DNA of 64,000 nt from a virus. Its lineage: Duplodnaviria > Caudoviricetes. The position numbers and the translations under genes are program-made. Each line of letters begins with the position of its first letter. The first letter of the stretch is position 1. Under the pieces are notes generated by a model. It was not told where the DNA came from, ran no database searches, and saw only the letters and a list, made by a program, of their open reading frames with translations. Shown one piece after another: positions 402 to 63,685 of this stretch. The DNA lies in the IMG/VR virus record IMGVR_UViG_3300021979_000004, positions 32,001 through 96,000 of that record; one strand, written 5' to 3'.

Positions 402-893
402 ATGGATAAGTCTTTGATATTTTTTGGGTTTAATGTTTATGGTGAAACTAAACCTATGAATCTAGAAAAAGCGTCTATGTATATCAAAGCAATTATTGAT
501 GATATTGTGAAAGATGCTAAAGCTAAAACCGAACAGCTTTCTTTTTCTGAATATGGTCATATACATCCAATTGAATTTGAAGTACATAAAGCATCAGGGA
601 AGAAAAATCTTATAACTATTGGAACCTTTGCTTTTGTTTGTAATGATATCGAAAGCTTCAGAAAACTCAAGCTTATGCTCCCAGAAAAAAATATTAAAAA
701 GGTGAAGATTGATGCTAACTATTTTGAGGTTGTGCATCATAATAGTTTGAATATGGCTAGGTTGCCAGAAAGGAATAATCATATTGTTCGTATACGGTAT
801 GAAAGCTCTTTGAAGACTAATGATAAAAGATTTAATACATTTTATAACTGTGAGAATAATAAAGTGGGTAATGGATTTGCAACAGTTCTTTAA
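402..893 (+). CDS. hypothetical protein with KLK-motif variant (FAFVCNDIESFRKLKLMLP)
   Basis: 163-aa ORF; motif resembles that of the 32.6-39.5 kb array. Confidence 0.75.
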   Translation: MDKSLIFFGFNVYGETKPMNLEKASMYIKAIIDDIVKDAKAKTEQLSFSEYGHIHPIEFEVHKASGKKNLITIGTFAFVCNDIESFRKLKLMLPEKNIKKVKIDANYFEVVHHNSLNMARLPERNNHIVRIRYESSLKTNDKRFNTFYNCENNKVGNGFATVL

Positions 894-900
894 AAGAGTA

Positions 901-929
901 TTGACATCGCCTTTGTAGTTCTGTAAAAT
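901..929 (+). promoter_or_regulatory. sigma70-type promoter
   Basis: TTGACA-17 bp-TAAAAT. Confidence 0.85.
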
Positions 930-937
930 TGTTAAAA

Positions 938-1051
938 TAGATACTGTGCGCGGACCCATGTTTGGGCAGGCTGGATGAACTTCTGGCCTTGACGGTTTAA
1001 TTCCGAGGCCGTGTATGACATTTGTGAGTGGATTGGGCAAGGCAGTATCTA
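938..1051 (+). ncRNA. structured 5' leader or small RNA, family unknown
   Basis: Closing stem TAGATACTG/CAGTATCTA; internal GGCCT-TGA-CGG..CCG-AGGCC hairpin; begins at the predicted TSS. Confidence 0.6.
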
Positions 1052-1072
1052 CCAAACTATTATGGGGATTCT

Positions 1073-1396
1073 ATGGCTACTAAACAGAAAGTACTCAAAG
1101 AACTTGAAAAGAAAGCTCCCGGTGCAACTTTGGTCATCATTGACGAAGGACTTAGCTTTCAGGCTCAGCTAGACGCTCCTGAAGGGCATCATTGGGAACT
1201 TGAGACTCATACTATGTGTGCACCCGAATGGTACACAGGACCGCGCTCAGAGTATTGGGACATGATTCTAGAAATGATCGATGAACTCCCACGTGCGGTT
1301 CCCTGCTCAGAAGAACATCCATGTGAAGGTATTACTGAATTTGGAGCATGTGAATTCTGGGATGAAGAAGATCGTGAACTGTTTCAACTCCATTGA
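1073..1396 (+). CDS. hypothetical acidic protein
   Basis: ATG 1073 with GGGGA RBS (the track's GTG 1028 start lies inside the RNA structure). Confidence 0.75.
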   Translation: MATKQKVLKELEKKAPGATLVIIDEGLSFQAQLDAPEGHHWELETHTMCAPEWYTGPRSEYWDMILEMIDELPRAVPCSEEHPCEGITEFGACEFWDEEDRELFQLH

Positions 1397-1405
1397 GGAT
1401 TGCTG

Positions 1406-1504
1406 ATGATTAAAAAAGCGTTTTTGTTACTGATATTCGTTCCGATTGGACTTTTCCTTATCGGGTATGTAAAATGGAAAAAATACAAAATTAAGAGGAA
1501 TTGA
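1406..1504 (+). CDS. small membrane peptide (MIKKAFLLLIFVPIGLFLIGYVKWKKYKIKRN)
   Basis: Read manually; GAGG RBS; hydrophobic stretch with basic tail; below the track cutoff. Confidence 0.6.
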   Translation: MIKKAFLLLIFVPIGLFLIGYVKWKKYKIKRN

Positions 1505-1505
1505 T

Positions 1506-8977: not shown

Positions 8978-9394
8978 ATGAATTATGGTTTCGATTATAA
9001 AAAATATTATATTGTTACTGAGATTTCTGTACATTATTCTCATAGAAACAGTTGTATAGGATTTGTTAAATATCCAGATTCTGAAGATAAAGAACTTCTT
9101 AGGCATAAAGATATGGTTATGAAAGAAGTTGAAAAGGTTGAAAGTTCAACAGGTGCTAAGTTTTGTCATCTTTGTTTTTATAGTCACACATTGCCACACA
9201 GGTTTATATTGATATTTGATATGGGCTTACAAGATAAGAATTTTATTAATAAAATGAAAATGAAAATTCCTCATATGGTTGAGGATATTAGGCCAGATGA
9301 TGATAGCTATATTGTTCTGATGAAAAACCGTTATGAAACAATGGATGTTTATGAGCATGATGGATTCACTGCATTTACAGATGCTACTAGTTGA
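8978..9394 (+). CDS. KLK-motif family protein (FINKMKMKIP)
   Basis: 138-aa ORF; motif shared with the array. Confidence 0.75.
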   Translation: MNYGFDYKKYYIVTEISVHYSHRNSCIGFVKYPDSEDKELLRHKDMVMKEVEKVESSTGAKFCHLCFYSHTLPHRFILIFDMGLQDKNFINKMKMKIPHMVEDIRPDDDSYIVLMKNRYETMDVYEHDGFTAFTDATS

Positions 9395-9744: not shown

Positions 9745-10134
9745 ATGATTACGATTGAAGATATTGCAGCACAAGTTGTTAATGAGTTTGTTAAACCTAA
9801 GTTCAAAACAAATCCTGAATTTGTTGCATTGAATTATCATGCGGAAGAAGAAAATCGATATTACTCATGTTCTATTCATTTATTGATTTCAGACTTTGAC
9901 GCTGATAGTGAAGGCGTTGAGCCTCATCTACTAAATGAAGAGTTGTGTGAGTATCTTATTGATAATAAAATATCACAGTTTGGGTCGTTACATTATTATG
10001 AGTTTGATCAATATGGATTAGAAGTTTTATTTTATATTGATTTCAGTACTGTTCGTGAGTTTATGAACCGACTAAAGTTAAAGAATGAAAAGCCTGAAAA
10101 GTTATATCAAATGTCTAAAATATTGGTGGCTTAA
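9745..10134 (+). CDS. KLK-motif family protein (FMNRLKLKNEKP)
   Basis: 129-aa ORF. Confidence 0.75.
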   Translation: MITIEDIAAQVVNEFVKPKFKTNPEFVALNYHAEEENRYYSCSIHLLISDFDADSEGVEPHLLNEELCEYLIDNKISQFGSLHYYEFDQYGLEVLFYIDFSTVREFMNRLKLKNEKPEKLYQMSKILVA

Positions 10135-10554
10135 ATGAAACTAAACAAGTATCTTTTTAATTTCGCACATTCTATTGGTGAACATAAACCTGATGTTTAT
10201 TTTAAAGAGTTTGTTAAGAACCTAAAAGGTTATCAGGTGGAAGATTTTACTGTCGAAGAGCTTAACAAAATCTGTGAAATTGTCCGTCGAGGGTTTGAGA
10301 GTGACTTTTATTCGTCGTTGGCGAATTATGTGTACGATAAGTATGAAGACACTGATGTTATGACTGAACTCAAGATGATTGCCTATGAAGAAGGTGAGTT
10401 TGAATACAGCGATAACTTTCGTATTAGTGATGGTAGTGCTATTGATGAAGCCATTTATTTTGTTACAAAGGCAACTGGATGTTGTGGGTTCTATGATGAT
10501 GAAGTTATCATTAAAGGTAAAAAGTATAAAATTGGTTTCAACTATGGACATTAA
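10135..10554 (+). CDS. hypothetical protein
   Basis: 139-aa ORF, coupled. Confidence 0.8.
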   Translation: MKLNKYLFNFAHSIGEHKPDVYFKEFVKNLKGYQVEDFTVEELNKICEIVRRGFESDFYSSLANYVYDKYEDTDVMTELKMIAYEEGEFEYSDNFRISDGSAIDEAIYFVTKATGCCGFYDDEVIIKGKKYKIGFNYGH

Positions 10555-19847: not shown

Positions 19848-19850
19848 TGT

Positions 19851-22438: not shown

Positions 22439-22673
22439 TCCGATGCGGACACACTGTAAAGAACACAATTACGTCAAGATCGAAAAGTTTATTACGTCGC
22501 CGGAGATAGGTGGAAAAATAAACTTGGAATATTCTATAACAACACGATTACAAAATGATGAGTGGGTAAAGAGAGAACCCTTGACGGTGTTTACCTTTTC
22601 ATGTGGTGATGATTCAGAGAAATTATCAAAGATAGTAAACTTTATGAAACTGTTGGGAGAGGATCATGTCTAG
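22428..22673 (+). CDS. hypothetical protein (IVNFMKL motif variant)
   Basis: Overlap-coupled. Confidence 0.7.
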   Translation: MSYNPMRTHCKEHNYVKIEKFITSPEIGGKINLEYSITTRLQNDEWVKREPLTVFTFSCGDDSEKLSKIVNFMKLLGEDHV

Positions 22674-32332: not shown

Positions 32333-32650
32333 ATGATTAATAGTTGCCAATTAGAATCTGTCGTAGAACGTTTAAATACTGCGTTTGAAAAAACAGAAAA
32401 AGACTACGATAAAATTCTTAAAGATATTAGCTTAAATGAGTCTACGTTAATGAACAAGATTGAATCTGATCTGGATGACCTTTCTAGGAAGTTTGAGGCC
32501 GCTAAGAGAGGACTTCAGCTTGTAAACAAGCTTTCCATGGGGATGACAAAACTAAAGCATACACAGCGTGTGATGAGCAATCTAAGCACTCTTAGAAGCA
32601 GTATCTTAAACCTAGAGAAGAAGGTAAAAGAAATGCTTTCTAAAGCTTAA
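32333..32650 (+). CDS. coiled-coil protein
   Basis: AAGGAG RBS. Confidence 0.75.
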   Translation: MINSCQLESVVERLNTAFEKTEKDYDKILKDISLNESTLMNKIESDLDDLSRKFEAAKRGLQLVNKLSMGMTKLKHTQRVMSNLSTLRSSILNLEKKVKEMLSKA

Positions 32651-33021
32651 ACAATGTGAACAAACTTCTTTAGAAATTGACTTTCATTATCCCTCATGTA
32701 TTCATACTTCGAGGGATTTGTTATTTTAATGCGGTTATTATCGTGAACACTTATCAATAGTTTACAACGTATAACAAACTCTTTATAAACTGTGTCGTCG
32801 GTAGGAATATAACTGGTAACCGTAGTACTATCTTTACTGCTTTCAAAACAATCAACCTGTACTTTGAAGCCACATGGTATTTGCATTACATCCTTAAAGT
32901 ATTCTCGAATGTATTCCTGTATCAAGTGTTTGTAATCAGAAATGTCAGACGAAGCAGATTCATGGATAGAAACAATAACCATACCAAAATTGTAATAGTA
33001 ATGACGAAATTCTTCACTCAC
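32647..33021 (-). CDS. KLK-motif array protein 17
   Basis: NNRIKITNPSKY. Confidence 0.75.
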   Translation of the reverse strand: MSEEFRHYYYNFGMVIVSIHESASSDISDYKHLIQEYIREYFKDVMQIPCGFKVQVDCFESSKDSTTVTSYIPTDDTVYKEFVIRCKLLISVHDNNRIKITNPSKYEYMRDNESQFLKKFVHIV

Positions 33022-33347
33022 AAAAAGTCTTCCTTACATACTAATTGAGGGTGTTCTTTTCTCAAGTTTACATAAAGGTTCATATGTTTTAATTTAAAAT
33101 ATTGTAGAGAACGTTTATTTAAAAACTGTACTCTTATAACATATGCATCATAATGTCTACTGTAAAAAACATTCCCATAACTACTTTTAATTGTTGGATA
33201 GGTTATTTTAGTGAAAGCGTACCCGTAAAGTATTTGGTTGATACTTTTCACTTTCTGATTCATGTCATCTTCAGAAACATGATCAGGCTTCTTTATCTTG
33301 TAGTAATACGTCAGTTCTTTCTTCATTACTCGACAAATACCTTCCAA
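33018..33347 (-). CDS. KLK-motif array protein 16
   Basis: LQYFKLKHMNLY. Confidence 0.75.
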   Translation of the reverse strand: MEGICRVMKKELTYYYKIKKPDHVSEDDMNQKVKSINQILYGYAFTKITYPTIKSSYGNVFYSRHYDAYVIRVQFLNKRSLQYFKLKHMNLYVNLRKEHPQLVCKEDFL

Positions 33348-33822
33348 GATATTTATCGTTTTGAGTAATGATCATCTTGTTGATTCTATTGGAATTGTCA
33401 AAGTTAAGCTCAAACACAACGTAAGATTCTATGGCTAACAAGGTATACCGTTTATGTTCACTATCTGCAATCACACAGTCTATAGACCTTGAGTTATCCA
33501 TATAATGCTGAACCTTAGAATCTGGGTCTGTTTGGCATCTTCGGAAAGATACAAACCCTTCGAAATCAGACATATCTCTTTTTGAAAAATGCTCCCTAAC
33601 TTCTCTGTAAATTTCTTCAGACACATTTTTACGATTAGAGTTATCCGAGACTTCAGGAATAAGTAAAGTAATCATCATAGAAAATAATACTTCAATTGAC
33701 GTGTCGCCTGTACGTATAAAAGAAACTGGCTTAAACTTTATATACTTGTCATGTATAGACATTTCACTGCATAATCCACCAGACCGGAGCAAACATTTAT
33801 GGTATAAGTTAAAATGTTTCAT
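33283..33822 (-). CDS. KLK-motif array protein 15 (weak motif)
   Basis: FELNFDNSNRINKMIITQNDKY. Confidence 0.7.
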   Translation of the reverse strand: MKHFNLYHKCLLRSGGLCSEMSIHDKYIKFKPVSFIRTGDTSIEVLFSMMITLLIPEVSDNSNRKNVSEEIYREVREHFSKRDMSDFEGFVSFRRCQTDPDSKVQHYMDNSRSIDCVIADSEHKRYTLLAIESYVVFELNFDNSNRINKMIITQNDKYLGRYLSSNEERTDVLLQDKEA

Positions 33823-33823
33823 A

Positions 33824-34153
33824 TCAGATAACTCCCAAAAATACTATAATGTAGTCCTGCTCACCGTCGTTTTTTATATCACGTTTGTATAGTTCTAACA
33901 ATTCTATCTTGTTGAGAAGCTTAAGCTTATTGAATATTGAAGATTTCTTGTCATTGAATGTTACGGTAGCTTCCATACTACTAAGAATATCTTTTCGATC
34001 AAACATATCAGTCGCGTCTTCGTTTACTTCAACCGTTTCGACTGAAGAATTGCTAGGTAAAAAAGATGTTATCAAGTAATCTTGTATAAATCCTGCGGTA
34101 GGAGGTGCATCACTCCTAGCCACAAAATACATTTTAAACTTAAGCGTATACAC
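33824..34153 (-). CDS. KLK-motif array protein 14
   Basis: IFNKLKLLN. Confidence 0.75.
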   Translation of the reverse strand: MYTLKFKMYFVARSDAPPTAGFIQDYLITSFLPSNSSVETVEVNEDATDMFDRKDILSSMEATVTFNDKKSSIFNKLKLLNKIELLELYKRDIKNDGEQDYIIVFLGVI

Positions 34154-34545
34154 TAATCGATCACCTTCATTTTTGAAAACATTTGATACTCATCTGGGTT
34201 GGACAATTTAAACTTATTTAACTCTTTCTGTGACTCGAATGCTAACGTGACTACTGCGTCAATCTGCATATAACAGTCAAATGTACTGATGTAGTAATCA
34301 TCAATGTAGTAGTCTTCTATTGACATCATGCGGTATATATCATGTTTAAAATTGTCTGACAAAAATCGATCAATATGACACTCTGCTACTTCGTATATAA
34401 GGTCAACAAAAATTTCTGACCTAGCGAACTCTTCCGTAATAACTTCGTGGAAGGGTTCTGTAGCATCTAACATTATCTTTGCAGAAAGCGTTACCTTTTT
34501 AGATTCGGATGTCATAGCACTTCTTAATCTTATCGGCCAAGTCAT
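34153..34545 (-). CDS. KLK-motif array protein 13
   Basis: LAFESQKELNKFKLSNPDEY. Confidence 0.8.
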   Translation of the reverse strand: MTWPIRLRSAMTSESKKVTLSAKIMLDATEPFHEVITEEFARSEIFVDLIYEVAECHIDRFLSDNFKHDIYRMMSIEDYYIDDYYISTFDCYMQIDAVVTLAFESQKELNKFKLSNPDEYQMFSKMKVID

Positions 34546-34876
34546 AGTTAATGAGTTTAATACGATTCAAATCAGATGCGTTGGAAATTTCGAATCCAAT
34601 CTTAACTTCACACTTACTTATAACGTTTCGCAAAACTTGTGGATAGCGACTAATTACAATTTTATCAAACCGCACTTCCTTACGGATATGATTTTCCAAT
34701 AACTCGTAAGCTTCGTCCATACTTTCCGATGACATTAGGTTGACTAACGACTTCAAGAACGTATGATCTGTGATACTGACAGGTAGGATAGGAGCCTTCA
34801 TCACACTAAACTTCATTCGAATAATATCATCTTTTTCAAGCTTCATAACTATTCCTCTTTTACAACATTGTAACAT
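34499..34876 (-). CDS. KLK-motif array protein 12
   Basis: FEISNASDLNRIKLINY. Confidence 0.75.
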   Translation of the reverse strand: MLQCCKRGIVMKLEKDDIIRMKFSVMKAPILPVSITDHTFLKSLVNLMSSESMDEAYELLENHIRKEVRFDKIVISRYPQVLRNVISKCEVKIGFEISNASDLNRIKLINYDLADKIKKCYDIRI

Positions 34877-34896
34877 ATCGACTTAAGTAATGCACC

Positions 34897-35379
34897 TCAA
34901 TTAGGAAGAACCATATCAATATCTATTGAGTACATAGTGGGTCCAGTTCCTTTTAAAATCTCTTGGTATATTTTTGCGTTTTTTAATTTAGCATAATTAT
35001 GATTAGAAAAGTCAGCGATATTGAATTTCACAGTGCTATATATAATATAATCATCTACCCATTCGTTAGGTCGTACCAGTGTATGTTCCAAAGGCTTACC
35101 TTTAAGACCGTTATCATCGATCCATTTCTGAGACTCTTTAGTAATCTCTTTCATGAAGTTTTTAATAGCAGTATCTTCGTCTACACCTTTCTCGCCTTTG
35201 AGATAATTATGCAATGCAAGACTGATATCAAATAAATCATCCTCACCATTAGAAGGATCAACAGTCTCGTCACCAATGGTGATTTTTTTTATAGAAAAGT
35301 TTAAGGTGATAAGAATACTTTCTTTTTGTTCAACTACATATACAATATTACCATTGTCTAGCTTTACAACTTCAGGCAT
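34897..35379 (-). CDS. KLK-motif array protein 11
   Basis: FNIADFSNHNYAKLKNAKIY. Confidence 0.75.
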   Translation of the reverse strand: MPEVVKLDNGNIVYVVEQKESILITLNFSIKKITIGDETVDPSNGEDDLFDISLALHNYLKGEKGVDEDTAIKNFMKEITKESQKWIDDNGLKGKPLEHTLVRPNEWVDDYIIYSTVKFNIADFSNHNYAKLKNAKIYQEILKGTGPTMYSIDIDMVLPN

Positions 35380-35900
35380 TAGTACTTCCCCATTATATAC
35401 CTTATTATGGATTCATTAGATAAGTCTTCTGATAAAACAGTATGAAGTGTTTTATCTTTTATCTTCATTAGATGTGCTTGCTTTTTAGGAATTTTAATAC
35501 AAATACGGTCGTATATTAGAAAACCAACTTCGTAAGCAAATGTCTGATGTATCTTTACTACACCTTGTCTGACAACATTTGAAAATGACGCAGAATGTTT
35601 CTGTCTGAATACATATGGTGATAGAAAGTCAGACATAGCAGAATACTCTTCATCCATACCCGAAACGACTTTTCTCTTTACTGTCATTTTGTAATCGTAT
35701 CCTTTTAGGAAATCCCTGATCATATTGTTTATCTTTCTATCTCGGTCTAGGTCTTTTACGAAGCTTTCTTTTAAGGTATTAACATATTTTTCAACTTTTT
35801 CTTCATTTTCAAAGTTATGATAATCGACATTTATCATTTCGTGGTCTACCATTTTTAGTAGATACATATAGTAATCTTCATTTTTCGATTTTATAGACAT
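35379..35900 (-). CDS. KLK-motif array protein 10
   Basis: IKIPKKQAHLMKIKDKTL. Confidence 0.75.
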   Translation of the reverse strand: MSIKSKNEDYYMYLLKMVDHEMINVDYHNFENEEKVEKYVNTLKESFVKDLDRDRKINNMIRDFLKGYDYKMTVKRKVVSGMDEEYSAMSDFLSPYVFRQKHSASFSNVVRQGVVKIHQTFAYEVGFLIYDRICIKIPKKQAHLMKIKDKTLHTVLSEDLSNESIIRYIMGKY

Positions 35901-36190
35901 TATGATTTTATTTCCACTATGTTATCTAATTGTGACATGAACTTGATTTTAAACTTATTAACATTATAAGTATCAGGGAATTGTAAAATTACCGTGCATG
36001 ATATTCGATAATCATGGCATTCAGTTGCTGTTTTATCAAAAAGCATTGGGTGGACTGTACACAATCCATCAAATTCATCCCCAACCCTATCTGAAATCAT
36101 TTGACGAATTTTAAAATCACTAAGGTCGTCTGGGTCGGGGATATGGTAAGTTCCTTTATGTTCCATAAGGAACAATCGTTCATCACTCAA
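35900..36190 (-). CDS. KLK-motif array protein 9
   Basis: LQFPDTYNVNKFKIKF. Confidence 0.75.
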   Translation of the reverse strand: MSDERLFLMEHKGTYHIPDPDDLSDFKIRQMISDRVGDEFDGLCTVHPMLFDKTATECHDYRISCTVILQFPDTYNVNKFKIKFMSQLDNIVEIKS

Positions 36191-36482
36191 CTTCTCTCTC
36201 CCTTATTTCATCTTCAAGTAAATTATATAAGTCAGGCTCTTTCATTTTAAGTAAGTTGAGCTTATTCTTTTCGAAATACAAGGTGAACCAAATATCAAAA
36301 ATAGATTGCTTTCTATCTCTCATATCCATATACATTTTCTTTTCTATAATGCAGTATTTTGAGAACTGTTCATTGATGGTATCAGAAGCATTACTCATTT
36401 CTGTACCTAAATCTACCTGCTTTATTTTTGCAATGCGATAATAGTTTATCACTGTTACGCATGTATATTTTGTAATAGTCAT
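36183..36482 (-). CDS. KLK-motif array protein 8
   Basis: LYFEKNKLNLLKMKEPDLY. Confidence 0.8.
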   Translation of the reverse strand: MTITKYTCVTVINYYRIAKIKQVDLGTEMSNASDTINEQFSKYCIIEKKMYMDMRDRKQSIFDIWFTLYFEKNKLNLLKMKEPDLYNLLEDEIREREVE

Positions 36483-36895
36483 AACTTTAACTTGTTTAAT
36501 AAATGTAACCTTTCGGAAAATAATTCATTATATGTTTTGGGGTTTTTCAACTTATATAAGTTCATTTCACGGTCAGATTCAAACGTAAAACGAAACTCTA
36601 TATACATTGCTTTATTAGGGAAAGAATACGCGCTGGTTAATGATTCAAGATATTCACTATTATATCCCATAGAAACAACTTCAAAGCTATCTGTGTCAGT
36701 CAATGACTTAATTAATGACTGACACACCCAATCCATACCTATATCTTCAGGTTTCATATCGTGCACATCGACACCATATAATTCCATGATACGGGCAGCA
36801 ATTACTTTTTCAGGAACTAGTGTGCCAAGTATTTTCGAGTTTATGTTCTCAAACATTTCACTTTCATTCAAGACCGGCTTTTTTACGCAACGCAT
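36479..36895 (-). CDS. KLK-motif array protein 7
   Basis: FTFESDREMNLYKLKNPKTY. Confidence 0.8.
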   Translation of the reverse strand: MRCVKKPVLNESEMFENINSKILGTLVPEKVIAARIMELYGVDVHDMKPEDIGMDWVCQSLIKSLTDTDSFEVVSMGYNSEYLESLTSAYSFPNKAMYIEFRFTFESDREMNLYKLKNPKTYNELFSERLHLLNKLKL

Positions 36896-37460
36896 TTACT
36901 GTTCCTCTGTCGTCAATACTATCTTTTGATTCTTGTATTATAACTTTATTAAACCATTCTTTGATTTTTTCTTCATTCTCATTATATTCGCCATTGAACA
37001 AACCGATATTTGTTAGTTCTGGATGCTTGAGCTTAAATTGGTTTTTATGTTTTCCTTCCTTGAGTCTTAGCTTATACGTATGTACTACCATCACATAGAC
37101 TGTGGTGGACTCTGCATAAAACTCATCGTCGTCATCGTCATCCCACGAATGAGATTCGACTTCACTGTGAACCGCTATGTTACGATCAACATCAATGTAT
37201 GATCCATATCTTTCTTCAATGATATCTGCAACTTTTTTTGAATAGTGGTTTACAAAACCACCATAAGCTTTTTCACAACGTTCACAAAAATCATCAATAA
37301 AGAATGCACGACATTCCTTTGTTCCATAGTGTATACGAAATCGCCTAAAACGCTTCAGTATCAGTTGTTCATTTTCATCATAACCACTTTCTTCGTCACG
37401 TTGATTAAGATACTCTATATACGGCGTTGGAGTTAACAACTCTACATTGATTGAATCCAC
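36864..37460 (-). CDS. KLK-motif array protein 6
   Basis: LRLKEGKHKNQFKLKHPEL. Confidence 0.8.
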   Translation of the reverse strand: MDSINVELLTPTPYIEYLNQRDEESGYDENEQLILKRFRRFRIHYGTKECRAFFIDDFCERCEKAYGGFVNHYSKKVADIIEERYGSYIDVDRNIAVHSEVESHSWDDDDDDEFYAESTTVYVMVVHTYKLRLKEGKHKNQFKLKHPELTNIGLFNGEYNENEEKIKEWFNKVIIQESKDSIDDRGTVNALRKKAGLE

Positions 37461-37930
37461 TCTTTATACTCCCAATAAGCCATTCTTTTATCAATACATT
37501 CTTGGTGAACAAACGCAGTAACAACTTCGAATGATTCGTCATACAAGTCATCACGGTAATGTTTTCCGTGTTTCAATTTTATACGATTGAGGGATTCCTT
37601 GTCAACGGTATTGGCCGTTATGATAGTGTTATAAACATAGGAATCATATATTCTTGTGGCAATCATATGCTCATCACCGTCGTCATCAACCTCTTGTTTT
37701 TTATCAAAATACTCTAAGAAGTCAGGATCATTAAAGAAAAGCTTAGACATAGCATGATTATTAGCTTTCATATAATCAGCAAACTGTCCATAACTAAGAT
37801 TTACCGACGACTTATAATCATCGACGTAATCTATATCAATACGTTTCAATGTGGTTTCAGTATTATCCTCATTAACTTCTTCAATGTAGTAGAGAAAGCA
37901 CATGTAATGCTCGTCGTCTACTTTAATCAT
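37442..37930 (-). CDS. KLK-motif array protein 5
   Basis: DKESLNRIKLKHGKHY. Confidence 0.8.
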   Translation of the reverse strand: MIKVDDEHYMCFLYYIEEVNEDNTETTLKRIDIDYVDDYKSSVNLSYGQFADYMKANNHAMSKLFFNDPDFLEYFDKKQEVDDDGDEHMIATRIYDSYVYNTIITANTVDKESLNRIKLKHGKHYRDDLYDESFEVVTAFVHQECIDKRMAYWEYKEWIQSM

Positions 37931-38268
37931 AAGTATTCTCCTACTAAATCGTGAACCCCGTATCTTTCACTGTTGTACGGAATTTCATATGGTTTTTCAT
38001 TAGGCGCTGATCTAAACTTTTGATATAGGTCAGGATATTTTAATTTGATTTTTCTAAACAATACTTCATTAAAAATTTCAACATCCATACTAACGTAACA
38101 TAGAGGATACGCTTTTGTTCCTCGAACTTCAATATCTGTAATTAAAATAAAAGAACAGTTTAATAGTTCTTCTAAAAACCCATGGTACTCAATCAATAGT
38201 TGTGACTTAAGCCACTCTGGGTTTTTGTAACCCAACAATATAATTCTATGCTTTGTTTCAAATATCAT
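37927..38268 (-). CDS. KLK-motif array protein 4
   Basis: VEIFNEVLFRKIKLKYPDLY. Confidence 0.8.
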   Translation of the reverse strand: MIFETKHRIILLGYKNPEWLKSQLLIEYHGFLEELLNCSFILITDIEVRGTKAYPLCYVSMDVEIFNEVLFRKIKLKYPDLYQKFRSAPNEKPYEIPYNSERYGVHDLVGEYL

Positions 38269-38677
38269 CAGTATCTTCGACTCTATAATCCTTGTAATAA
38301 TTTGGGTCTTTCAGTTTTATCAAGTTAATATTTTTACTACCCTTTGCTACAACCGCTTTTATAAAATATGTTACTGTGATGGTGTTGGGAGAGTCAAGCC
38401 TTCTCATGCCAGTATGACCCCAATTAGCTTCTACGTTTATAAAATCCATTTGTGATTCTCTAGAATACGAAACCGGATCGCAAATAATTTCTATTGGTTT
38501 TAGTTCATATCTAGCCCACAATTCTATAGCAGCTTGCTTTTTAACTTTTTTAATAATAGACTCTGCCATTAGGCATTCTTTTTCACTACTATTAAGCAAC
38601 AGTTCTACATCACTACCAGTGAACATGTCAGGAGTAATGCAAAAAACTATTGTATGTGGTCTGTATAATATTTTCAT
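38258..38677 (-). CDS. KLK-motif array protein 3
   Basis: KGSKNINLIKLKDPNYY. Confidence 0.8.
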   Translation of the reverse strand: MKILYRPHTIVFCITPDMFTGSDVELLLNSSEKECLMAESIIKKVKKQAAIELWARYELKPIEIICDPVSYSRESQMDFINVEANWGHTGMRRLDSPNTITVTYFIKAVVAKGSKNINLIKLKDPNYYKDYRVEDTDDI

Positions 38678-39108
38678 GTTTTATGTGAGCAATCTATCCC
38701 ATAGAAATACGAACCGTCACTGGTTGAAAAGTTTGCATATTTATGATTAATTAGCTTAGTCATAAAGTTATTTTGAATCTTTAATCTGTTAAAAGATTTG
38801 TTAGAAATCCACACTTTATAACACAACGTAAATGTACAGCATATCCCATCTGCTATAAAAAAGTATTCTGATCTAAAGTTTTCGGATAATTCAAAATCAT
38901 CGAAATCATCTACGAGCCAATCAGGTAAGCCACTATTATCAAAAACATAATTACGATTTTTGAATTCCCATTCTCTAATTATCTGGCTCATGTTTTTTAT
39001 AATTGAAACTTTCTTGAATTCCATAGGTATGAGAACATTCATTACTCGGAATTTTAGATACAAAAAGTTTTCATTGCTTGAAACTAAAGAAGGTTTGGTA
39101 GTAGTCAT
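38674..39108 (-). CDS. KLK-motif array protein 2
   Basis: VWISNKSFNRLKIQN. Confidence 0.75.
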   Translation of the reverse strand: MTTTKPSLVSSNENFLYLKFRVMNVLIPMEFKKVSIIKNMSQIIREWEFKNRNYVFDNSGLPDWLVDDFDDFELSENFRSEYFFIADGICCTFTLCYKVWISNKSFNRLKIQNNFMTKLINHKYANFSTSDGSYFYGIDCSHKT

Positions 39109-39475
39109 AATCCTTGATCTTTAACAAACGTAATTCGTTTTCACTTAGAGAAAGCTTGATTATTCCAGTTACATTAAAGTATAGCATAGCCCTTTGATTC
39201 TGTCCGGTGTTTACTTCACTTGACGCTATACTAAAGCTATTTGTCGTCAACGGGCTTACACATTCTAGAATTGCGCCATACTCTATATCATTCTGATATG
39301 CATGACCGTGTTCAATTAAAAACTTTAAATCAACACGATGTTTATATGCTTCCTCATAGTAATGGTTTGGATCGCCACACTTAGCTTTGTAATGTTGTTC
39401 TTGTATCTCATTACGTATAAAATTCGTGCTAGCTTTATACATAAATGTTCGATAAAGATTTATTGTTTTATCCAT
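39071..39475 (-). CDS. KLK-motif array protein 1
   Basis: LSLSENELRLLKIKDYDYY; probable ATG start (MDKTINL), since the track's TTG start is the promoter -35 box. Confidence 0.75.
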   Translation of the reverse strand: MDKTINLYRTFMYKASTNFIRNEIQEQHYKAKCGDPNHYYEEAYKHRVDLKFLIEHGHAYQNDIEYGAILECVSPLTTNSFSIASSEVNTGQNQRAMLYFNVTGIIKLSLSENELRLLKIKDYDYYQTFFSFKQ

Positions 39476-39512
39476 ATTTTTATAATGTGAGTAATGGAAT
39501 TCCCAACCTAAG

Positions 39513-39541
39513 AATATACTCCTAGAGCCTTGTACTGTCAA
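39513..39541 (-). promoter_or_regulatory. sigma70-type early promoter for the 17-gene array
   Basis: Minus strand TTGACA-17-TATATT. Confidence 0.8.
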
Positions 39542-42849: not shown

Positions 42850-43482
42850 TTATAGTTTTTGTTCCTTTACTTTCTTATATTTATCATCCTCAAAACTTCC
42901 TTCATATGTTAATTTAATGGGCTTGCGGTAGTAGTAATAGTTTGGATGTTTCAACTTATGCAGTCGTTCTAATCTATCTGCTTCTACTTCCATTGAAATA
43001 AAATGTGCGTCAACTGCACTATTCAAGAAATCAAAATCATCTATGAAAATCTTAACATCAAATGCATAGTTCATTGCCAAATAAAGTTCGCCATCTTTCA
43101 TATATTTTACAGAGCTTCCACCACCCGAGCCAAGATTCACACCAGCAACTGAGTGTGCGCCTCGGTTTCCAAACATACCACTACATGACGATATACGATG
43201 GTTATTGATAATAGTGAACTCTATTCTTCCCTGAAGACCCTTGTAATATAATGGCTTTGAATTATCTCTCATGAAGTTCTCAACACCATCGATAGGGCAG
43301 GAATGGGAGTTGCTAACTTCTTTCTTATATTCGACACTGTACTGTAAGCTGATAATATCTGCGTCAAAGTTTTCTTTTATAGCCTCTGGGAGATACTTGA
43401 AAATATCACCCACTTCTTTTGCATCCTCACACAACTTTATTAGAACAAACCTATCAGGCTTCTTACTTACTTTTGGAAACAT
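42850..43482 (-). CDS. hypothetical protein (RLHKLKHPNYY motif variant)
   Basis: ATG 43482 with AGGAGG RBS. Confidence 0.8.
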   Translation of the reverse strand: MFPKVSKKPDRFVLIKLCEDAKEVGDIFKYLPEAIKENFDADIISLQYSVEYKKEVSNSHSCPIDGVENFMRDNSKPLYYKGLQGRIEFTIINNHRISSCSGMFGNRGAHSVAGVNLGSGGGSSVKYMKDGELYLAMNYAFDVKIFIDDFDFLNSAVDAHFISMEVEADRLERLHKLKHPNYYYYRKPIKLTYEGSFEDDKYKKVKEQKL

Positions 43483-44566: not shown

Positions 44567-44963
44567 CAACGCGACCTTTAACACCTTCTTTAAAACACTT
44601 ATCAGCACTACCTTTGATCTTATGGAGATTAAGAGTACGACGAATGTTAGGGTAGTGTTCAAGGTTTAAAACGATTTCAACGTTTTCGATGTAGATACGT
44701 TTACCTTTCAGTTCACCAATACCGAATGCACCTTTGGAACGTGACTTGCATTTAGCTGATGCAATTTCCAGATCAGCATCTTTCCAAAGAGGATACTTTT
44801 CAACATCTTCACAGTAAATTTTCCCAACAATAACAACACTTTTCTTTTCATCTGAATAGATGGATTTGAGGTTTACCTTGACTACATCAACTCCGATAGA
44901 GTCTTTGAAGGCTGTAGGAAGGTCTTCGTTGATAACCGTTTCAATGTTCTTTGCCTCAGACAT
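44553..44963 (-). CDS. hypothetical protein (TLNLHKIKG motif variant)
   Basis: ATG 44963 with AGGGG RBS. Confidence 0.75.
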   Translation of the reverse strand: MSEAKNIETVINEDLPTAFKDSIGVDVVKVNLKSIYSDEKKSVVIVGKIYCEDVEKYPLWKDADLEIASAKCKSRSKGAFGIGELKGKRIYIENVEIVLNLEHYPNIRRTLNLHKIKGSADKCFKEGVKGRVDEKH

Positions 44964-45033
44964 GAAAAATCCCCTTACGACTATTTCCATCTATTATAGA
45001 GGATACGTAAGGGGATTGCAAGCTATTTTACAA

Positions 45034-46203: not shown

Positions 46204-46215
46204 ATTAAATACCCC

Positions 46216-48923: not shown

Positions 48924-49527
48924 GGAATCCTCCTAGCGATTTCATAGTTGGTATATCACATGCTGATAATACCTCAATTCTACACTGATCCGACCTGACT
49001 TTTTCAGGTACGCTTGAAAACAAAATTTCTATTCTCAATAGTTCAACATTAATTTTCCCCGGTGTATCCATACCACCAAGTAATGTACAATTAGGTTTTT
49101 TCAATTTTAAATAATTTAACGTCCTTTTAATATCTTCAGAGTCTTTATTTATAACAAATACAGACTCCAAATCTATAAGATAAAAACCATCGTAAACATC
49201 TTCCAACATAATAAACTTTGCAATAATCTTGTTGCTGATTAATGGACCATAGTTACCTAACCCAAAGCAATAGTGGTTATTCAGAACATAACTTATGTAA
49301 TGCTTTATTAGGTCTTCTTTAATAACCCTTTCAGTGCAATATGCCATTGCATTTTCGAATGTATCTCCCTTATCAATCATATCCTTGCAGATTGCTAGAA
49401 TTGTGTAAATTCTAGTAGATTGTAAAGCTTTACGATATTTCTCAAGTGGTGCAAAATTTATGCCATATTTCAAGTTATTTCTAACATTCTTAGCTATAAC
49501 TTTTTTGAATGTATAAATGTCCATCAC
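48916..49527 (-). CDS. KLK-motif family protein, helical subtype
   Basis: IKRTLNYLKLKKP. Confidence 0.8.
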   Translation of the reverse strand: MMDIYTFKKVIAKNVRNNLKYGINFAPLEKYRKALQSTRIYTILAICKDMIDKGDTFENAMAYCTERVIKEDLIKHYISYVLNNHYCFGLGNYGPLISNKIIAKFIMLEDVYDGFYLIDLESVFVINKDSEDIKRTLNYLKLKKPNCTLLGGMDTPGKINVELLRIEILFSSVPEKVRSDQCRIEVLSACDIPTMKSLGGFRG

Positions 49528-49955
49528 ACGAATACCTTAGTCTTGGGACTTTTGATTTTCATATAGTTTAGTGCTTTCTTCACACAATTGGTATTTCTTA
49601 GTATTTCCCAAATAAGAACACCTTGACTATCTTTGCCCAACGCTGAACTTAGATATATCCCATTAGGGAAGTTCGTGGTTATATCACATGAAATAGCCTT
49701 TTTAATAAGAGCTTCAGCGAAAGTTGGTGTGAATATTAAATGAATATTTTCCTTAACAATCTTTGGTATGTAGCAACCTGTCAAACGATATAGAACCATG
49801 TCAATTACCATATCATTTTCAATGATACGCTTTCGGACTATGTTAAAAACATTGTCTCTAGACTTTCCTTGTGTTTTCCGTACCAAGGAATCCTCTATAA
49901 GGCGCATAGATTGATAGATGTAAAGCATACGATGTTTTGAATTAGATATTTCCAA
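49524..49955 (-). CDS. KLK-motif family protein, helical subtype
   Basis: VKKALNYMKIKSP. Confidence 0.8.
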   Translation of the reverse strand: MEISNSKHRMLYIYQSMRLIEDSLVRKTQGKSRDNVFNIVRKRIIENDMVIDMVLYRLTGCYIPKIVKENIHLIFTPTFAEALIKKAISCDITTNFPNGIYLSSALGKDSQGVLIWEILRNTNCVKKALNYMKIKSPKTKVFV

Positions 49956-49957
49956 TG

Positions 49958-50422
49958 TTATTCTCCCAAATCTAAGTCTTCACGAGGAAACTTTATCTTG
50001 ACGTAGTTTATTGACTTCTTCATAGAATCATGGTCTTTATTGTTTGGATACCAAGTATACCAAGATAGCCCTTGTTGGTTTCTAAACATGGTTCCCAACA
50101 TACACGCAAGATTACATGGGCCTTCTAGATAAGTGCCAGTTTGTTTAAGTAGGCATGTAGGTACTCTCTTTATGAACCTAGAAACAATCTCAGAAGTTAC
50201 AAAGTATGGCATGTTTATTCCAACTTTTCTTGGAATGAACTTGTTTTGGTTAATGTCCGTAAAATAGCAGAAAAATCGTATAAGGTTGAGGTCATCCCCG
50301 ACAAATTCATCGAATGTTTTCTTAGCCACATCAAACCCATAAAGTGACAGATCACTTTCAACAGTTTGTAGAAAGTAATACACTCTTAAGGCGTCAACTT
50401 TTTTCTTTGCTATTTCTTCCAT
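49958..50422 (-). CDS. KLK-motif family protein, helical subtype
   Basis: MKKSINYVKIKFP. Confidence 0.8.
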   Translation of the reverse strand: MEEIAKKKVDALRVYYFLQTVESDLSLYGFDVAKKTFDEFVGDDLNLIRFFCYFTDINQNKFIPRKVGINMPYFVTSEIVSRFIKRVPTCLLKQTGTYLEGPCNLACMLGTMFRNQQGLSWYTWYPNNKDHDSMKKSINYVKIKFPREDLDLGE

Positions 50423-54448: not shown

Positions 54449-54451
54449 GAA

Positions 54452-55684: not shown

Positions 55685-55685
55685 A

Positions 55686-56832: not shown

Positions 56833-56856
56833 AAAAGGCTCCATATGGAGCCTTTT
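56833..56856. terminator. bidirectional terminator
   Basis: AAAAGGCTCCA-TA-TGGAGCCTTTT. Confidence 0.8.
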
Positions 56857-57260
56857 TAATTATTTACAATTTTGACCATATTCAAGGTTGGTTCAAGTCC
56901 ATGGTACAAAGCGTATTCAAATTGAGACTTGTCGTATTTTGGTATACATGGAAGCAACCCCTGAAGATCAATCTTATAATAATTAGGGTTCTTTTCATAA
57001 TGGTATTCAAGTTCTAAAAGAACCTCGTAAAAGTCTAAACCAATTTTAGCTGTACCATAACTATAACTTATATCAATTCCATCGTGGTAACAAAACTTGA
57101 TTTTTTGAATCATCATATCAATTTTGTCTTGAACCCTATCATAATATGGAGCATCACTATCTAAAGAGCCTTTCATATCAAAACCAATAGTAAGGGATTT
57201 GAGAAGACTGGTATTTCCATATTCTTCATAACGGACAATGGTTACTAATGTATTATTCAT
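56856..57260 (-). CDS. hypothetical protein (TLNMVKI motif variant)
   Basis: Probable ATG 57260 coupled to the upstream stop. Confidence 0.7.
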   Translation of the reverse strand: MNNTLVTIVRYEEYGNTSLLKSLTIGFDMKGSLDSDAPYYDRVQDKIDMMIQKIKFCYHDGIDISYSYGTAKIGLDFYEVLLELEYHYEKNPNYYKIDLQGLLPCIPKYDKSQFEYALYHGLEPTLNMVKIVNN

Positions 57261-57727
57261 TTCATAATCCTTACAATATCCAATGCTGAATTGAAGTTTG
57301 TTTTGTCGATCAAACTCACGTTTACGTCCATTGTCATCAAAGGTTTTACTGATGCACATATAATTTTATAATATCTCATTATCTCATTCAAGTTTTCTTT
57401 ACATCCTTCAAGATCAAATATATAAATTTCAAGCTCACTTATTTTATATACCTTGCGTGTAACCAATCCTTGTTCTTCATAAGAAAATTTCAGACTAACA
57501 TATTCATTAGAAAGATGTTTAACTGCTTCATAAAACTTTGGCATCTTATATGCTGTCTTGTCGTCAATTGAAGAGACATTAATCTGGAACATCAAATACG
57601 ATCCCGGTTTGTACATTTCCTTGTCAGTACAGATATCATGTTCCCACAAGGTGTACTTGTAAGAGTCTTCTATCATGTCGGACAACAAAGTATAGTCGGG
57701 TAACTCTTTCTTTTTCAGTTTGGTCAT
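57257..57727 (-). CDS. hypothetical protein (ALDIVRI motif variant)
   Basis: 156-aa ORF. Confidence 0.75.
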   Translation of the reverse strand: MTKLKKKELPDYTLLSDMIEDSYKYTLWEHDICTDKEMYKPGSYLMFQINVSSIDDKTAYKMPKFYEAVKHLSNEYVSLKFSYEEQGLVTRKVYKISELEIYIFDLEGCKENLNEIMRYYKIICASVKPLMTMDVNVSLIDKTNFNSALDIVRIMK

Positions 57728-58345: not shown

Positions 58346-58600
58346 TTACTTTTTCCTATAGTGTTTGTGTAAGTTTTTAAGTTTGAATCTACCCATTGCA
58401 TGGGTGTCATCTTCTAGTATTATAACATGCACCTCTAAAAGTGCAACATCATTTCCAATTCCAATCATGTGTCTTGTGTAGAAACCGATGCCTTCAATCT
58501 CTCGGTCTACATACCTAAGAGAGTTTTCAATACCATTCTCAACACATCGACACTCGATACCTCGGATGTTGGTTATTTGTTTAGTTAGGAACCAATTCAT
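58346..58600 (-). CDS. KLK-motif family protein (AMGRFKLKN)
   Basis: 84-aa ORF. Confidence 0.7.
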   Translation of the reverse strand: MNWFLTKQITNIRGIECRCVENGIENSLRYVDREIEGIGFYTRHMIGIGNDVALLEVHVIILEDDTHAMGRFKLKNLHKHYRKK

Positions 58601-60823: not shown

Positions 60824-60846
60824 AAAAGAGGGCATAGCCCTCTTTT
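60824..60846. terminator. terminator after the duplicated clpP 3' end
   Basis: AAAAGAGGGC-ATA-GCCCTCTTTT. Confidence 0.8.
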
Positions 60847-60849
60847 AAT

Positions 60850-61017
60850 TTAACCATTCAGTTTGTTCTTATCCATGATTTCATCAACAAGGCCAAACGC
60901 TAGAGCTTCTTCTGCAACCATGTAATTGTCACGGTCACATGCAGCGTGAACTTCCTCTAGTGTCTTTCCAGTACAATCAGCATAGATTTCTTCTAGCCTT
61001 TGACGTGTACGTAGAAT
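60850..61017 (-). pseudogene. duplicated 3' end of clpP (~55 codons)
   Basis: [41 protein letters not shown] vs clp[42 protein letters not shown]. Confidence 0.9.
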
Positions 61018-61512
61018 TATTACAGGAATACTAAGTACACCCTTGATGAAATTATTGAAAAGTTTAAAAAAGTTCACGGTGAAAAATATAGTTACAGATA
61101 TGTTAAATATTCTGGAATATTTAATTTAGTGAAAATAGAATGCCCTTTTCATGGTATGTATGAGCAATCGCCTAAAAACCACATATCAGGAAACGGTTGC
61201 CCTAATTGTACTGGTCGTGTTTCGAAGTCTTCAAACAAATGGTTAGATTCGTTTGAGAATAAAAACATTATCTATGAATATTCGATACCTGAAAATAAAA
61301 ACCTTATAGTAGATGGATATGACCCCACTACCAACACTGTTTATCAATATCATGGAGACTATTGGCACGGCAACCCCCGAAAATATAATCCAAATGATAT
61401 AAACTCGCATAATGGAGAACGTTTTGGGGAGTTATACAAAAAGACTTTAGAAAACGATAATTTTCTAAAGTCTTGTGGTTACCAACTCATTGTGAAGTGG
61501 GAAAGTGAATAA
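61015..61512 (+). CDS. zinc-finger plus Vsr/DUF559-like (PD-(D/E)xK) putative homing endonuclease, 5'-truncated
   Basis: Frame open from 61015 (KVHGEKYSY...IECPFHG..Q.P..H..G.GCP.C); VDGY...YQYHGDYWHG...W(E); first start codon is GTG 61129. Confidence 0.75.
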   Translation, partial: NYYRNTKYTLDEIIEKFKKVHGEKYSYRYVKYSGIFNLVKIECPFHGMYEQSPKNHISGNGCPNCTGRVSKSSNKWLDSFENKNIIYEYSIPENKNLIVDGYDPTTNTVYQYHGDYWHGNPRKYNPNDINSHNGERFGELYKKTLENDNFLKSCGYQLIVKWESE

Positions 61513-61538
61513 TATACCATATCACAATTTCTATAACT

Positions 61539-62135
61539 TTATGGCTTTTTCATTTGGTCTGGGTACATAACCGCGTCTGCTAAACCAAAGTCAACAGCTT
61601 CTTCGGCGGTCATAAAGTTATCGCGATCACAAGCCGCATGAATTTCTTCTAGTGTCTTACCAGTGCATTCTGCATATATAGTCTCCAAACGCTTTCTGGT
61701 TCGTTGAATATGCTTTGCATGAATTTCAATATCACTAGACTGACCTTGAAAACCGCCCAAAGGCTGATGGATCATGTTCTCTGCCATTGGAAGCATGTAA
61801 CGCTTGCCTTGTGTACCACCACATGCTGCAAGGAAGCTACCCATAGACGCTGCCATACCGGTTACAACAGTAGTAATGTCTGGCGTGACATACTTCATAG
61901 TGTCGTAAATCGCCATACCTGCGGTTACAGAGCCACCGGGGCTGTTAATGTACACATGAATGTCTTTATTAGCGTCTTGGTTTTCAAGATACAGAAGCTG
62001 TGCACAAATTAGCGATGCCATTTCATCATTGACACCACCGGTCATCATAATCACACGTTCCTCTAGAAGACGTGAATAGATGTCCATTGAGCGTTCACCG
62101 TTAGAGGTGCGTTGGATTACCATAGGTACTAGCAT
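61539..62135 (-). CDS. clpP: ATP-dependent Clp protease proteolytic subunit
   Basis: [23 protein letters not shown] (Ser), MIHQP (His), DRDNFM (Asp). Confidence 0.96.
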
Positions 62136-62208
62136 ATTATATTTCTCCTGATTTATGTTTGTGATTACATCTTAACGTATTCATAAGGTTTTGTAAACCC
62201 TACAAATT

Positions 62209-62649
62209 TTATTCAAAATACTTATCAACGAATAGTTTCGATCTTTTAATATTGAAAAGATCATCGCGATCAAGTTCAATGATAGAATTGAAAAAGTCGG
62301 CGTTTTCAATATCACCAAATGTAACCGATTCGCCTTTTATAGCGGTATACTTAAGACCACTATAATCGATTAAATATTTCATGGTTTTACAAAAGTCTTC
62401 TGCGCCATCAAGGTCACAGAGAAATTCAATCTGGTCTGCTCCAAGCTGAACTTTATCATTTACTAAATCCGCATAGAAATCCCTGTCGGATTTAGGAACC
62501 TTACGGAATATTTCTTTACGCTCGGATGGATAAATTTTCTTTGCTCTGTCTACAAATATCTGTGCATAATTATCAACGTAATACTTTACCCTTTCATAAA
62601 GAACAATATTATCTTTAATAAAATTACCAACGGTGTATTTTACAATCAT
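62209..62649 (-). CDS. hypothetical protein
   Basis: 146-aa ORF. Confidence 0.75.
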   Translation of the reverse strand: MIVKYTVGNFIKDNIVLYERVKYYVDNYAQIFVDRAKKIYPSERKEIFRKVPKSDRDFYADLVNDKVQLGADQIEFLCDLDGAEDFCKTMKYLIDYSGLKYTAIKGESVTFGDIENADFFNSIIELDRDDLFNIKRSKLFVDKYFE

Positions 62650-62650
62650 A

Positions 62651-63685
62651 TCAATTCTCTTCTGTTATTGAATCAATTCCCTTCTTAATCTTCATGTAAT
62701 TAAGGACTTTAGAAGGACTATACCGTACATGCCCACTATTATCAAGCTTTGCATCTTTTAAGTGCCGCACAATTTTATCTGTGTTACGTCTCTTTAACAC
62801 TAACTGATTGATAATTCGTGTTTTATCATCATTAGACACTTTTGAAATTCCAGTAAACTTGCAACCTTTATGCTCAAGGAATGTGTTACTGACCATAGCC
62901 AAGTCTTGCATACGTGATATCAATGCCTCCATGTGATATTCAATCACTGATTCATAATTACTTTCCTTGAGATTATTAATCACACGACTGGAATCACCTT
63001 TCAAAAATGAAAACTTCAAATACAAAGACAGAAGTGCATTGGGCATCTTACCATTTCTGATATTCTTTTCGTAATATTCAGAACCTTTAACAATAGAATT
63101 CTTAAAGAATTCCAGTGACAGCTTAGTCAGAATTTGATCTTTCATCATTCCATTAATAATTTCCCGATACTCTTCTGTACTGGTTTCATTATAAAGCATT
63201 TCTTTTGCTTTAGTAAACTCTTCGCGTGTCTTATCGTTCTCCACTTGATTTAGATACTTATCAAATTTGAGAAGATGACGTGCACATTCTTTGCCATACT
63301 TTTTATAAATTTTTACTAACTTCTTCTTGTAACATTTTAAAAAGTAATTTAACTCATCTACGTTTGAGATATGTAGCAAGTCCGCATCAATATAGTAATC
63401 CATGATGTGACTATCAATCCAAAGGTATAAGGAATACGATACAAATACCGTGAGCATATCAAGAGTTTGAAAGCACTCTGGGATTTCTCCGTTTTTGACA
63501 CACTCAGATACAGTTTCGTAATCAATATATTTTGAGATAACACCTATACACTCTTTGTTTCTACTAAGGCTTATATCAGTCATAGGCTGACTATCCATGG
63601 GATTATTCTTTCTAAGCTTCTTCAAAGAATCGATTTTGAAGTTCTCAGCAGTAAGCATATAGTTATATCTAATAAAAAGATTCAT
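62651..63685 (-). CDS. KLK-motif family protein, large helical subtype (VLNYMKIKK)
   Basis: 344-aa ORF. Confidence 0.8.
   Translation of the reverse strand: MNLFIRYNYMLTAENFKIDSLKKLRKNNPMDSQPMTDISLSRNKECIGVISKYIDYETVSECVKNGEIPECFQTLDMLTVFVSYSLYLWIDSHIMDYYIDADLLHISNVDELNYFLKCYKKKLVKIYKKYGKECARHLLKFDKYLNQVENDKTREEFTKAKEMLYNETSTEEYREIINGMMKDQILTKLSLEFFKNSIVKGSEYYEKNIRNGKMPNALLSLYLKFSFLKGDSSRVINNLKESNYESVIEYHMEALISRMQDLAMVSNTFLEHKGCKFTGISKVSNDDKTRIINQLVLKRRNTDKIVRHLKDAKLDNSGHVRYSPSKVLNYMKIKKGIDSITEEN

Follow-up and report, generated by a model that had tools for sequence, protein, structure and literature searches.

A recurrent asparagine- and lysine-bearing element in a diverged gene family, and on a few predicted helical proteins, of a jumbo-phage clade

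We analyzed a 64,000-nucleotide stretch (hereafter the window; bases 32001-96000 of a single 217,982-bp record, 35.5% G+C) of the Caudoviricetes virus IMGVR_UViG_3300021979_000004, in which a short protein element built around the triplet K-[LIM]-K recurs in many small genes. The window holds a 17-gene array of alpha/beta-type members on its minus strand (32647..39541), which forms the context for further carriers scattered along the sequence (each named here by the first base of its open reading frame, ORF), among them three adjacent genes at 48916, 49524 and 49958 (the trio) and a longer gene at 62651. An initial annotation of the DNA had listed 13 such genes besides the array and had proposed that the motif is a transferable tag rather than the remnant of a fold. 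The nearest relatives of the record are marine metagenome contigs of 401-462 kb, sampled as the partial loci L001, L003, L005, L007 and L009, while among cultured phages the NAMPT gene finds its best match in Salicola phage SCTP-2 (57% identity). Carriers of the element make up ~40 of the 382 called ORFs of the record, or roughly every tenth gene, and all of them lack known relatives. We found the element to be real, selected at the protein level, biased towards the C-terminal third of its carriers and old in the clade.

All 13 peptides quoted in the initial annotation were located in their named ORFs. Upon counting motifs genome-wide (382 ORFs, 67,923 amino acids) against a null obtained by shuffling each protein, the bare K[LIM]K triplet occurred 118 times versus 79.3±9.0 in the shuffled set, a weak 1.5-fold excess. 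Once aligned, the sites revealed an extended element, h-N-x-h-K-h-K-x-P (h, hydrophobic residue), in many cases continued by x-x-Y. Its form N-x-[LIMVFYH]-K-[LIMV]-K was observed 26 times versus 2.4±1.6, and the stricter [LIMV]-N-[YFH]-[LIMV]-K-[LIMV]-K (the LNY form) 11 times versus 0.07, so that the enrichment over shuffles ranges from 11-fold to more than 100-fold; the reversed patterns gave 5 and 0 matches, and patterns of similar composition 1-5. The proposal that K-[LIM]-K recurs meaningfully, and does so beyond shuffled sequences, thus stands for the extended element and is weak for the triplet on its own. A matrix scan and an analysis of positional bias, both suggested in the initial annotation, were carried out as well, and the last third of the protein was found to hold 23 of the 26 sites (binomial p = 9e-9). 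Sites were also fourfold denser in proteins of up to 250 amino acids (5.7 per 10,000 residues) than in longer ones (1.35), and the earlier estimate that a quarter of the small genes of the window carry the motif proved about right with the array counted (24-28 of ~118 window ORFs). It is very improbable that K-h-K strings recur simply because an AT-rich genome makes lysine, asparagine, isoleucine and tyrosine common: the modest excess of the bare triplet is what such a compositional origin would give, but the extended element lies far above shuffled, reversed and look-alike patterns, is strongly concentrated in the C-terminal third and is conserved in orthologues.

The codons carry a further message. 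The same 7-mer, LNYMKIK, is present in 49524 and 62651 with codons that differ at six of seven positions, and identical peptides elsewhere are likewise written with different synonymous codons, indicating that selection acts on the protein and not on a DNA signal. An internal promoter or recombination site that happens to be translated would fit the AT-rich codons of the motif, yet we regard this as practically negligible, as synonymous codons vary freely between copies of the same peptide and the stop codon lies anywhere from 4 to 77 codons away. The same variation in the spacing between element and C-terminus (4-77 residues) led us to reject a terminal tag of the ssrA type (C-terminal) or of the T4 capsid-targeting type (N-terminal), which would have a fixed position at the extreme terminus. 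One apparent N-terminal copy, in genome ORF 19827-20684, probably reflects a TTG start called too far upstream, with an ATG three codons further on. Both AlphaFold models that we obtained (49524 and 9745) place the element in a helix and not in a loose appended peptide.

The alpha/beta family to which the array belongs numbers about 35 copies in the 218-kb record, these being small, soluble proteins of this jumbo-phage clade, with a median length of 146 amino acids, an ordinary isoelectric point and no membrane-type segment. Anchored on the asparagine, 35 members have a hydrophobic stretch from -15 to -7, a polar loop from -6 to -2 and a hydrophobic residue at -1, followed by the consensus N (31/35), x, h (94%), K (33/35), h (35/35) and K (26/35), then N, D or H, P (16/35), x, h and Y (20/35). 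A module profile built from 19 alpha/beta members with the trio excluded (A5) matched 28 sites in its own genome, including the 17th ORF of the array (window 33018-33347); the match spanned nearly all 38 columns in alpha/beta members and only columns 17-31 in the trio (E 0.003-0.02). Leave-one-out hidden Markov models (HMMs) of the family, run as a 350-protein search, recovered each member with E values of 6e-9 to 1e-2, with 35379 as the one exception, while hhalign comparisons between orthologue groups gave low probabilities except inside the trio. An AlphaFold model of 9745, based on a 54-row family alignment (predicted local distance difference test, pLDDT, 69; predicted template modeling score, pTM, 0.67), has a helix at 4-19, strands at 25-34 and 39-47, a helix at 65-73, strands at 80-87 and 89-98, and a final helix at 104-113 that is the element itself. 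A long amphipathic beta-strand and a polar loop of 4-6 residues precede the element in this model and, as a sequence pattern, in 8978, 9745, 44553, 58346 and 402, but not in the trio or 62651. An orthologous array was found in the 458-kb relative. Only 32 bases from the divergent start of the array lies a 696-amino-acid ORF (39573-41663, +) with a terminase nuclease domain and an intein (Intein_splicing and PT-HINT matches).

For the 13 listed sites, we used a 14-column matrix trained on 18 members absent from that list, with p-values obtained per protein by scoring the listed site against shuffled proteins. Seven sites are solid (p < 0.01: 8978, 9745, 42850, 48916, 49524, 49958 and 62651), four are plausible (402, 22428, 44553 and 58346) and two are unsupported (56856 and 57257), so that the claim of 13 motif-bearing genes was partly confirmed. 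The element of 8978 (gene 8978-9394, 138 amino acids), FINKMKMKIPHM at 9242..9277 (+), scored p = 0.002 and was kept in two orthologues, and the leave-one-out family HMM found the protein at E = 2.9e-4. In 9745 (9745-10134, 129 amino acids), FMNRLKLKNEKPEKLY at 10060..10107 (+) scored p < 0.001, with a family HMM E value of 6e-5. Judged by their sequences, 8978 and 9745 are both assigned to the alpha/beta family of the array as scattered members, and 42850 (42850-43605) is probably a third. Its element, LERLHKLKHPNYYY at 42931..42972 (-; p = 0.009), has arginine in place of asparagine and is preceded by a stretch that is not strand-like, and its K-L-K-H-P-N-Y-Y half matches array member 38258, to which hhalign aligned it over 14 columns; the gene probably starts further downstream than the ORF was called, since the orthologue has 206 amino acids.

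Three of the plausible genes, 402, 44553 and 58346, are possibly scattered alpha/beta members too. The site TLNLHKIKGS of 44553 (44607..44636, -; gene 44553-44990) is borderline (p = 0.03) and a probable member of the set: a beta-strand lies before it, it has R-T-L-N in common with 48916, and it was kept in an orthologue. In 58346 (58346-58600, 84 amino acids), glycine replaces asparagine in AMGRFKLKNLHKHY at 58358..58399 (-) and the matrix p-value is 0.84; yet its M-G-R-F-K-L-K-N-..-Y comes after an obvious strand with an acidic loop, and a relative with an overall identity of 60% has the element unchanged. The mid-protein site of 402 (402-893), SFRKLKLMLPEK at 654..689 (+; p = 0.40), reads F-R-K-L-K-L-x-x-P and makes 402 a plausible relative of the similar array member 37927 (hhalign, 44 columns, E = 0.002), and it was kept in orthologues. 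The matrix penalizes 58346 and 402 unfairly, because its training set required the asparagine. The fourth plausible site, IVNFMKLLGE in 22428 (22632..22661, +; gene 22428-22673), is weak and has no second lysine (p = 0.06).

Neither unsupported site fits the motif well. The listed site of 56856 (gene 56856-57359), TLNMVKIVNN at 56859..56888 (-; p = 0.13), was kept in an orthologue, but a site further upstream in the gene fits better, namely YEKNPNYYKI at 56970..56999 (-), a degenerate P-N-Y-Y half that was absent from the initial list; here the orthologue reads N-Y-Y-K-L-K, and hhalign to 38258 covers 13 columns. This ORF was called too long, as its orthologue has 129 amino acids and starts at a methionine equivalent to ~57245 of the window, and a shorter start would remove its overlap with the real gene 57257-57727. 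The site of the latter, ALDIVRIMK at 57260..57286 (-; matrix score -10.6, p ~1.0), looks like a chance resemblance. Hence, compositional chance is refuted for the seven supported genes and may account for two to four of the listed sites, where 57257 and 56856 score as random and 402 and 58346 do so under the strict matrix.

The trio and 62651 present the element in another setting. In the trio, TLNYLKLKKPNC lies at 49087..49122 (-) of 48916 (48916-49527, 203 amino acids) with 66 residues downstream of it, ALNYMKIKSPKT at 49539..49574 (-) of 49524 (49524-49955; the real start is probably 49928, giving 134 amino acids) and SINYVKIKFPRE at 49979..50014 (-) of 49958 (49958-50422, 154 amino acids), each with p < 0.001. 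These three genes are mutual paralogues over 79-116 columns, with 49958 and 49524 related over 79 columns at a probability of 88%. An AlphaFold model of 49524 from 11 sequences (pLDDT 89, pTM 0.84) is all-helical without a long strand, and the element sits in its last helix (114-126), which holds N121, Y122, K124 and K126. In 62651 (62651-63685, 344 amino acids), VLNYMKIKKGID at 62672..62707 (-; p = 0.007) lies 16 residues from the end; an ESM Atlas model of this protein has a pLDDT of 0.38. Profile-profile comparison by hhalign aligned the alpha/beta module with the trio over 14 columns (E = 2e-5) and with 62651 over 12 columns (E = 1.6e-3), and the trio with 62651 over 11 columns, and the likeness of trio and 62651 to the alpha/beta family is confined to 12-16 residues. 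Outside the window, a 304-amino-acid protein (genome 146299-147213) ends in N-F-I-N-K-M-K-L-K-H-G-V-E with no preceding strand-like stretch; it has eight of nine residues in common with the element of 8978, written in different codons. The initial annotation had tied the LNY form to helical proteins, which did not hold, as four alpha/beta-type members outside the window have this form as well. Its notion of a transferable tag fits the trio and 62651, with their 12-16 columns in common with the family, and fails for most carriers, including the array, 8978 and 9745.

The element was retained in the orthologues examined, at 48-77% overall identity, with the exception of one degraded orthologue of 9745. 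Pooled over orthologues, identity was 80% in the 12-residue core versus 69% elsewhere. The difference was larger in the helical carriers, with 75-92% in the motif versus 48-63% in the rest (49958, 92% versus 63%; 62651, 75-83% versus 48-62%), and the C-terminal 50 residues of 62651 are its best-conserved part in four relatives. An alignment of the trio with its orthologues, at only 18-20% identity between the paralogues, has five invariant columns, of which four are N, Y, K and K.

Searching SCTP-2 with the A5 profile matched one ORF (E = 0.0015), whose neighborhood turned out to be a tandem array (genes 340-345 plus 348, each of 134-166 amino acids) with ends composed of a hydrophobic strand, S-Q-H-D and then h-N-R-L-K-L-x-D-x-x-F-Y-D or a near variant. 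Genes 340-345 (L033 18921-22859, corresponding to MF360958.1 298920-302858) are clear paralogues of 148-166 amino acids, all annotated as hypothetical, that have in common a basic N-terminal stretch, a Y-W-x-D/N-V/I block in the middle and, at the C-terminal end, the N-R-L-K-L element. The same arrangement in SCTP-2 strongly supports the alpha/beta family from outside the record and shows it to be old in the clade. The profile found no match in the jumbo phages RsoM2USA and LucasX, and neither the trio nor 62651 had a match in SCTP-2.

Database searches gave no lead to a described family. Pfam and PHROGs searches with 20 carriers returned nothing significant, the sole match being the unnamed phrog_12523 in 42850, and profiles run against PDB sequences gave no match below E = 0.03. 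HMMER with the 9745 profile against 1.84 billion representatives recovered its own cluster only, word-based searches yielded just 4-6 close relatives per query, no relative of 62651 was found in IMG/VR, DNA or short protein queries had no match in the phage collection, and nothing usable on 38258 or 62651 came from the ESM Atlas. Structure searches with the 49524 model returned only weak helical-hairpin and TPR/PPR-like matches (template modeling score, TM, <= 0.5; Z <= 5.6), and those with the 9745 model only generic two-layer sandwiches (Z <= 6.8, TM < 0.5). The element order of the 9745 model, helix-strand-strand-helix-strand-strand-helix, is the topology of LAGLIDADG homing endonucleases; the match to I-DmoI was weak (Foldseek probability <= 0.28, TM ~0.27), VIA-align ranked other folds first, and we rejected this identity as unsupported, as 9745 and the array members have no LAGLIDADG motif with an acidic residue closing the first helix, and LAGLIDADG Pfam matches were absent at E <= 1 in one search and at E <= 0.1 in another. 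Ribosomal protein L30 (PF00327) was likewise rejected: it matched 48916 only, with 12 bits where the Pfam gathering score is 23 (E = 0.2), with residues 130-149 aligned to the T-L-x-x-L-G-L-R-K-type positions 13-32 of the profile, and L30 appeared in no structure search. We also discarded a likeness of h-h-K-h-K-P to motif V, as present in ligases and capping enzymes, because the proteins are too small and no K-x-D-G was present in the sequences read.

We lean towards a reading in which the element is the hallmark of a diverged family in most carriers and independent of the fold in a few, and most likely forms a common binding surface. In this reading, K-h-K would be the core of a 12-16-residue element that is the only recognizable sequence feature of a very diverged multigene family; in alpha/beta members, it would come after a polar loop that is itself preceded by the last long beta-strand, and x-x-Y would usually follow it, while in the trio and 62651 the same element would sit on a scaffold with no other similarity to that family. 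In most carriers the motif accompanies the fold, and in four or five it appears to be independent of it; the interpretation given in the initial annotation is partly supported. A binding surface is suggested because one asparagine and two lysines are kept across ~40 otherwise unrelated sequences, which is seldom the case for reasons of stability alone. The element could then bind one partner, such as an acidic protein patch or a phosphate-bearing ligand, and the variable bodies would supply different activities; that all carriers have one partner in common is plausible, though less likely than not.

Several observations weigh against this reading. In the alpha/beta members, the motif is conserved between orthologues no better than the rest of the protein, and in the L005 orthologue of 9745 (10001-10390) it has degraded to S-L-E-K-L-K-N while the remainder is ~72% identical, indicating that single members can lose the motif by erosion. 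Masking the element removes nearly all of the leave-one-out HMM signal, and since the masked sequences lose significance, the common descent of the family rests on its architecture and tandem arrangement and not on whole-length statistics. The pLDDT of the element helix in the 9745 model is low (48-61), the helical nature of 62651 is an impression given by its sequence, and the binding role is read from which residues are conserved. We therefore hold with moderate confidence that the 12-16-residue element also sits on a second, helical scaffold, as one model is merely fair and 62651 was judged from its sequence.

A descent of all carriers from one ancestor, with the element capping or stabilizing the C-terminal end of the domain and no common partner involved, would explain why both models show it as a structured helix that belongs to the domain and why most carriers have a strand-loop-helix context. 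We nevertheless consider this unlikely: the residues kept are an asparagine and two lysines and not mainly core residues, the model of 49524 has no long strands at a pLDDT of 89, the similarity of trio and 62651 to the alpha/beta family ends after 12-16 columns, and SCTP-2, which has the alpha/beta family, lacks the helical carriers. Improbable, too, is a helix for self-association, by which carriers would form homo- or hetero-oligomers, for example within the translationally coupled trio or between array neighbors. Carriers do often adjoin, with overlapping stop and start codons, and the hydrophobic pair at +2 and +4 is conserved, but two like-charged lysines per copy would not obviously favor self-pairing and many carriers are single and scattered. 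Compared with the binding surface that we favor, a bolder version is more tentative and on balance doubtful, namely that the element is a portable docking helix by which some 40 proteins of different function, with two or more unrelated folds among them, attach to a single hub, perhaps a phage assembly or some conserved machine of the host. Such a helix would amount to a phage-wide addressing system, exchanged between scaffolds or convergently evolved, and conserved from marine jumbo phages to SCTP-2.

Elsewhere in the window, a 75-amino-acid ORF at 60850-61077 (-) is 68% identical over 53 residues to residues 143-195 of a ClpP-like protease (named by a Pfam match on its orthologue) encoded ~500 bases away at 61539-62135 (-), as if part of the ClpP C-terminus had been duplicated. 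Beside NAMPT, 53066-56831 (+) is occupied by three PQQ/BamB-like beta-propeller genes in tandem, with a fourth at 23780-24808; the 458-kb relative has a single 457-amino-acid gene at the spot beside NAMPT (L001 17678-19051). The first 30-35 residues of the propeller protein encoded at 53066-54448 (+, 460 amino acids, PQQ-like) are 43% identical to those of the 210-amino-acid product of 47384-48016 (-), with no similarity reported past them, so that the two may have an N-terminal leader in common. Two pairs of adjacent paralogues, each 28% identical and without the motif, lie at 25542-27259 (-; 290 and 281 amino acids) and 45034-47370 (-; 389 and 384 amino acids), and no Pfam family was found among the members tested.

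We found no description of the alpha/beta K-h-K family. Of the known kinds, the closest are multigene families restricted to single lineages of jumbo phages, for example the zinc-ribbon expansion of roughly 35 copies in Bacillus phage G (Iyer et al. 2021, PMC7824862); that paper names SCTP-2 once, without mention of this family (PMC7824862). As in the phage G expansion, dozens of small proteins without known relatives occur partly in tandem and partly scattered within one clade, and divergence has left one short motif recognizable. The two differ in motif, in predicted alpha/beta body and in clade (here marine uncultured phages and SCTP-2), and, unlike in phage G, the motif would also occur on a second, predicted all-helical scaffold. 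A different parallel is the T4 capsid-targeting sequence, a short N-terminal targeting tag common to unrelated phage proteins. Like that sequence, the element is a short stretch on what appear to be different folds within one phage, suggesting a common address or partner; unlike the N-terminal leader of T4, it is found in the last third of the protein, variably spaced from the C-terminus and within a predicted structured helix.

If the element were merely a family hallmark, it would represent one more lineage-specific expansion, useful for annotation and unsurprising. If, however, its carriers share one partner, the element would open a way into the functions of a sizeable part of jumbo-phage 'dark matter', an idea that can be tested at the bench because SCTP-2 can be grown in the laboratory.

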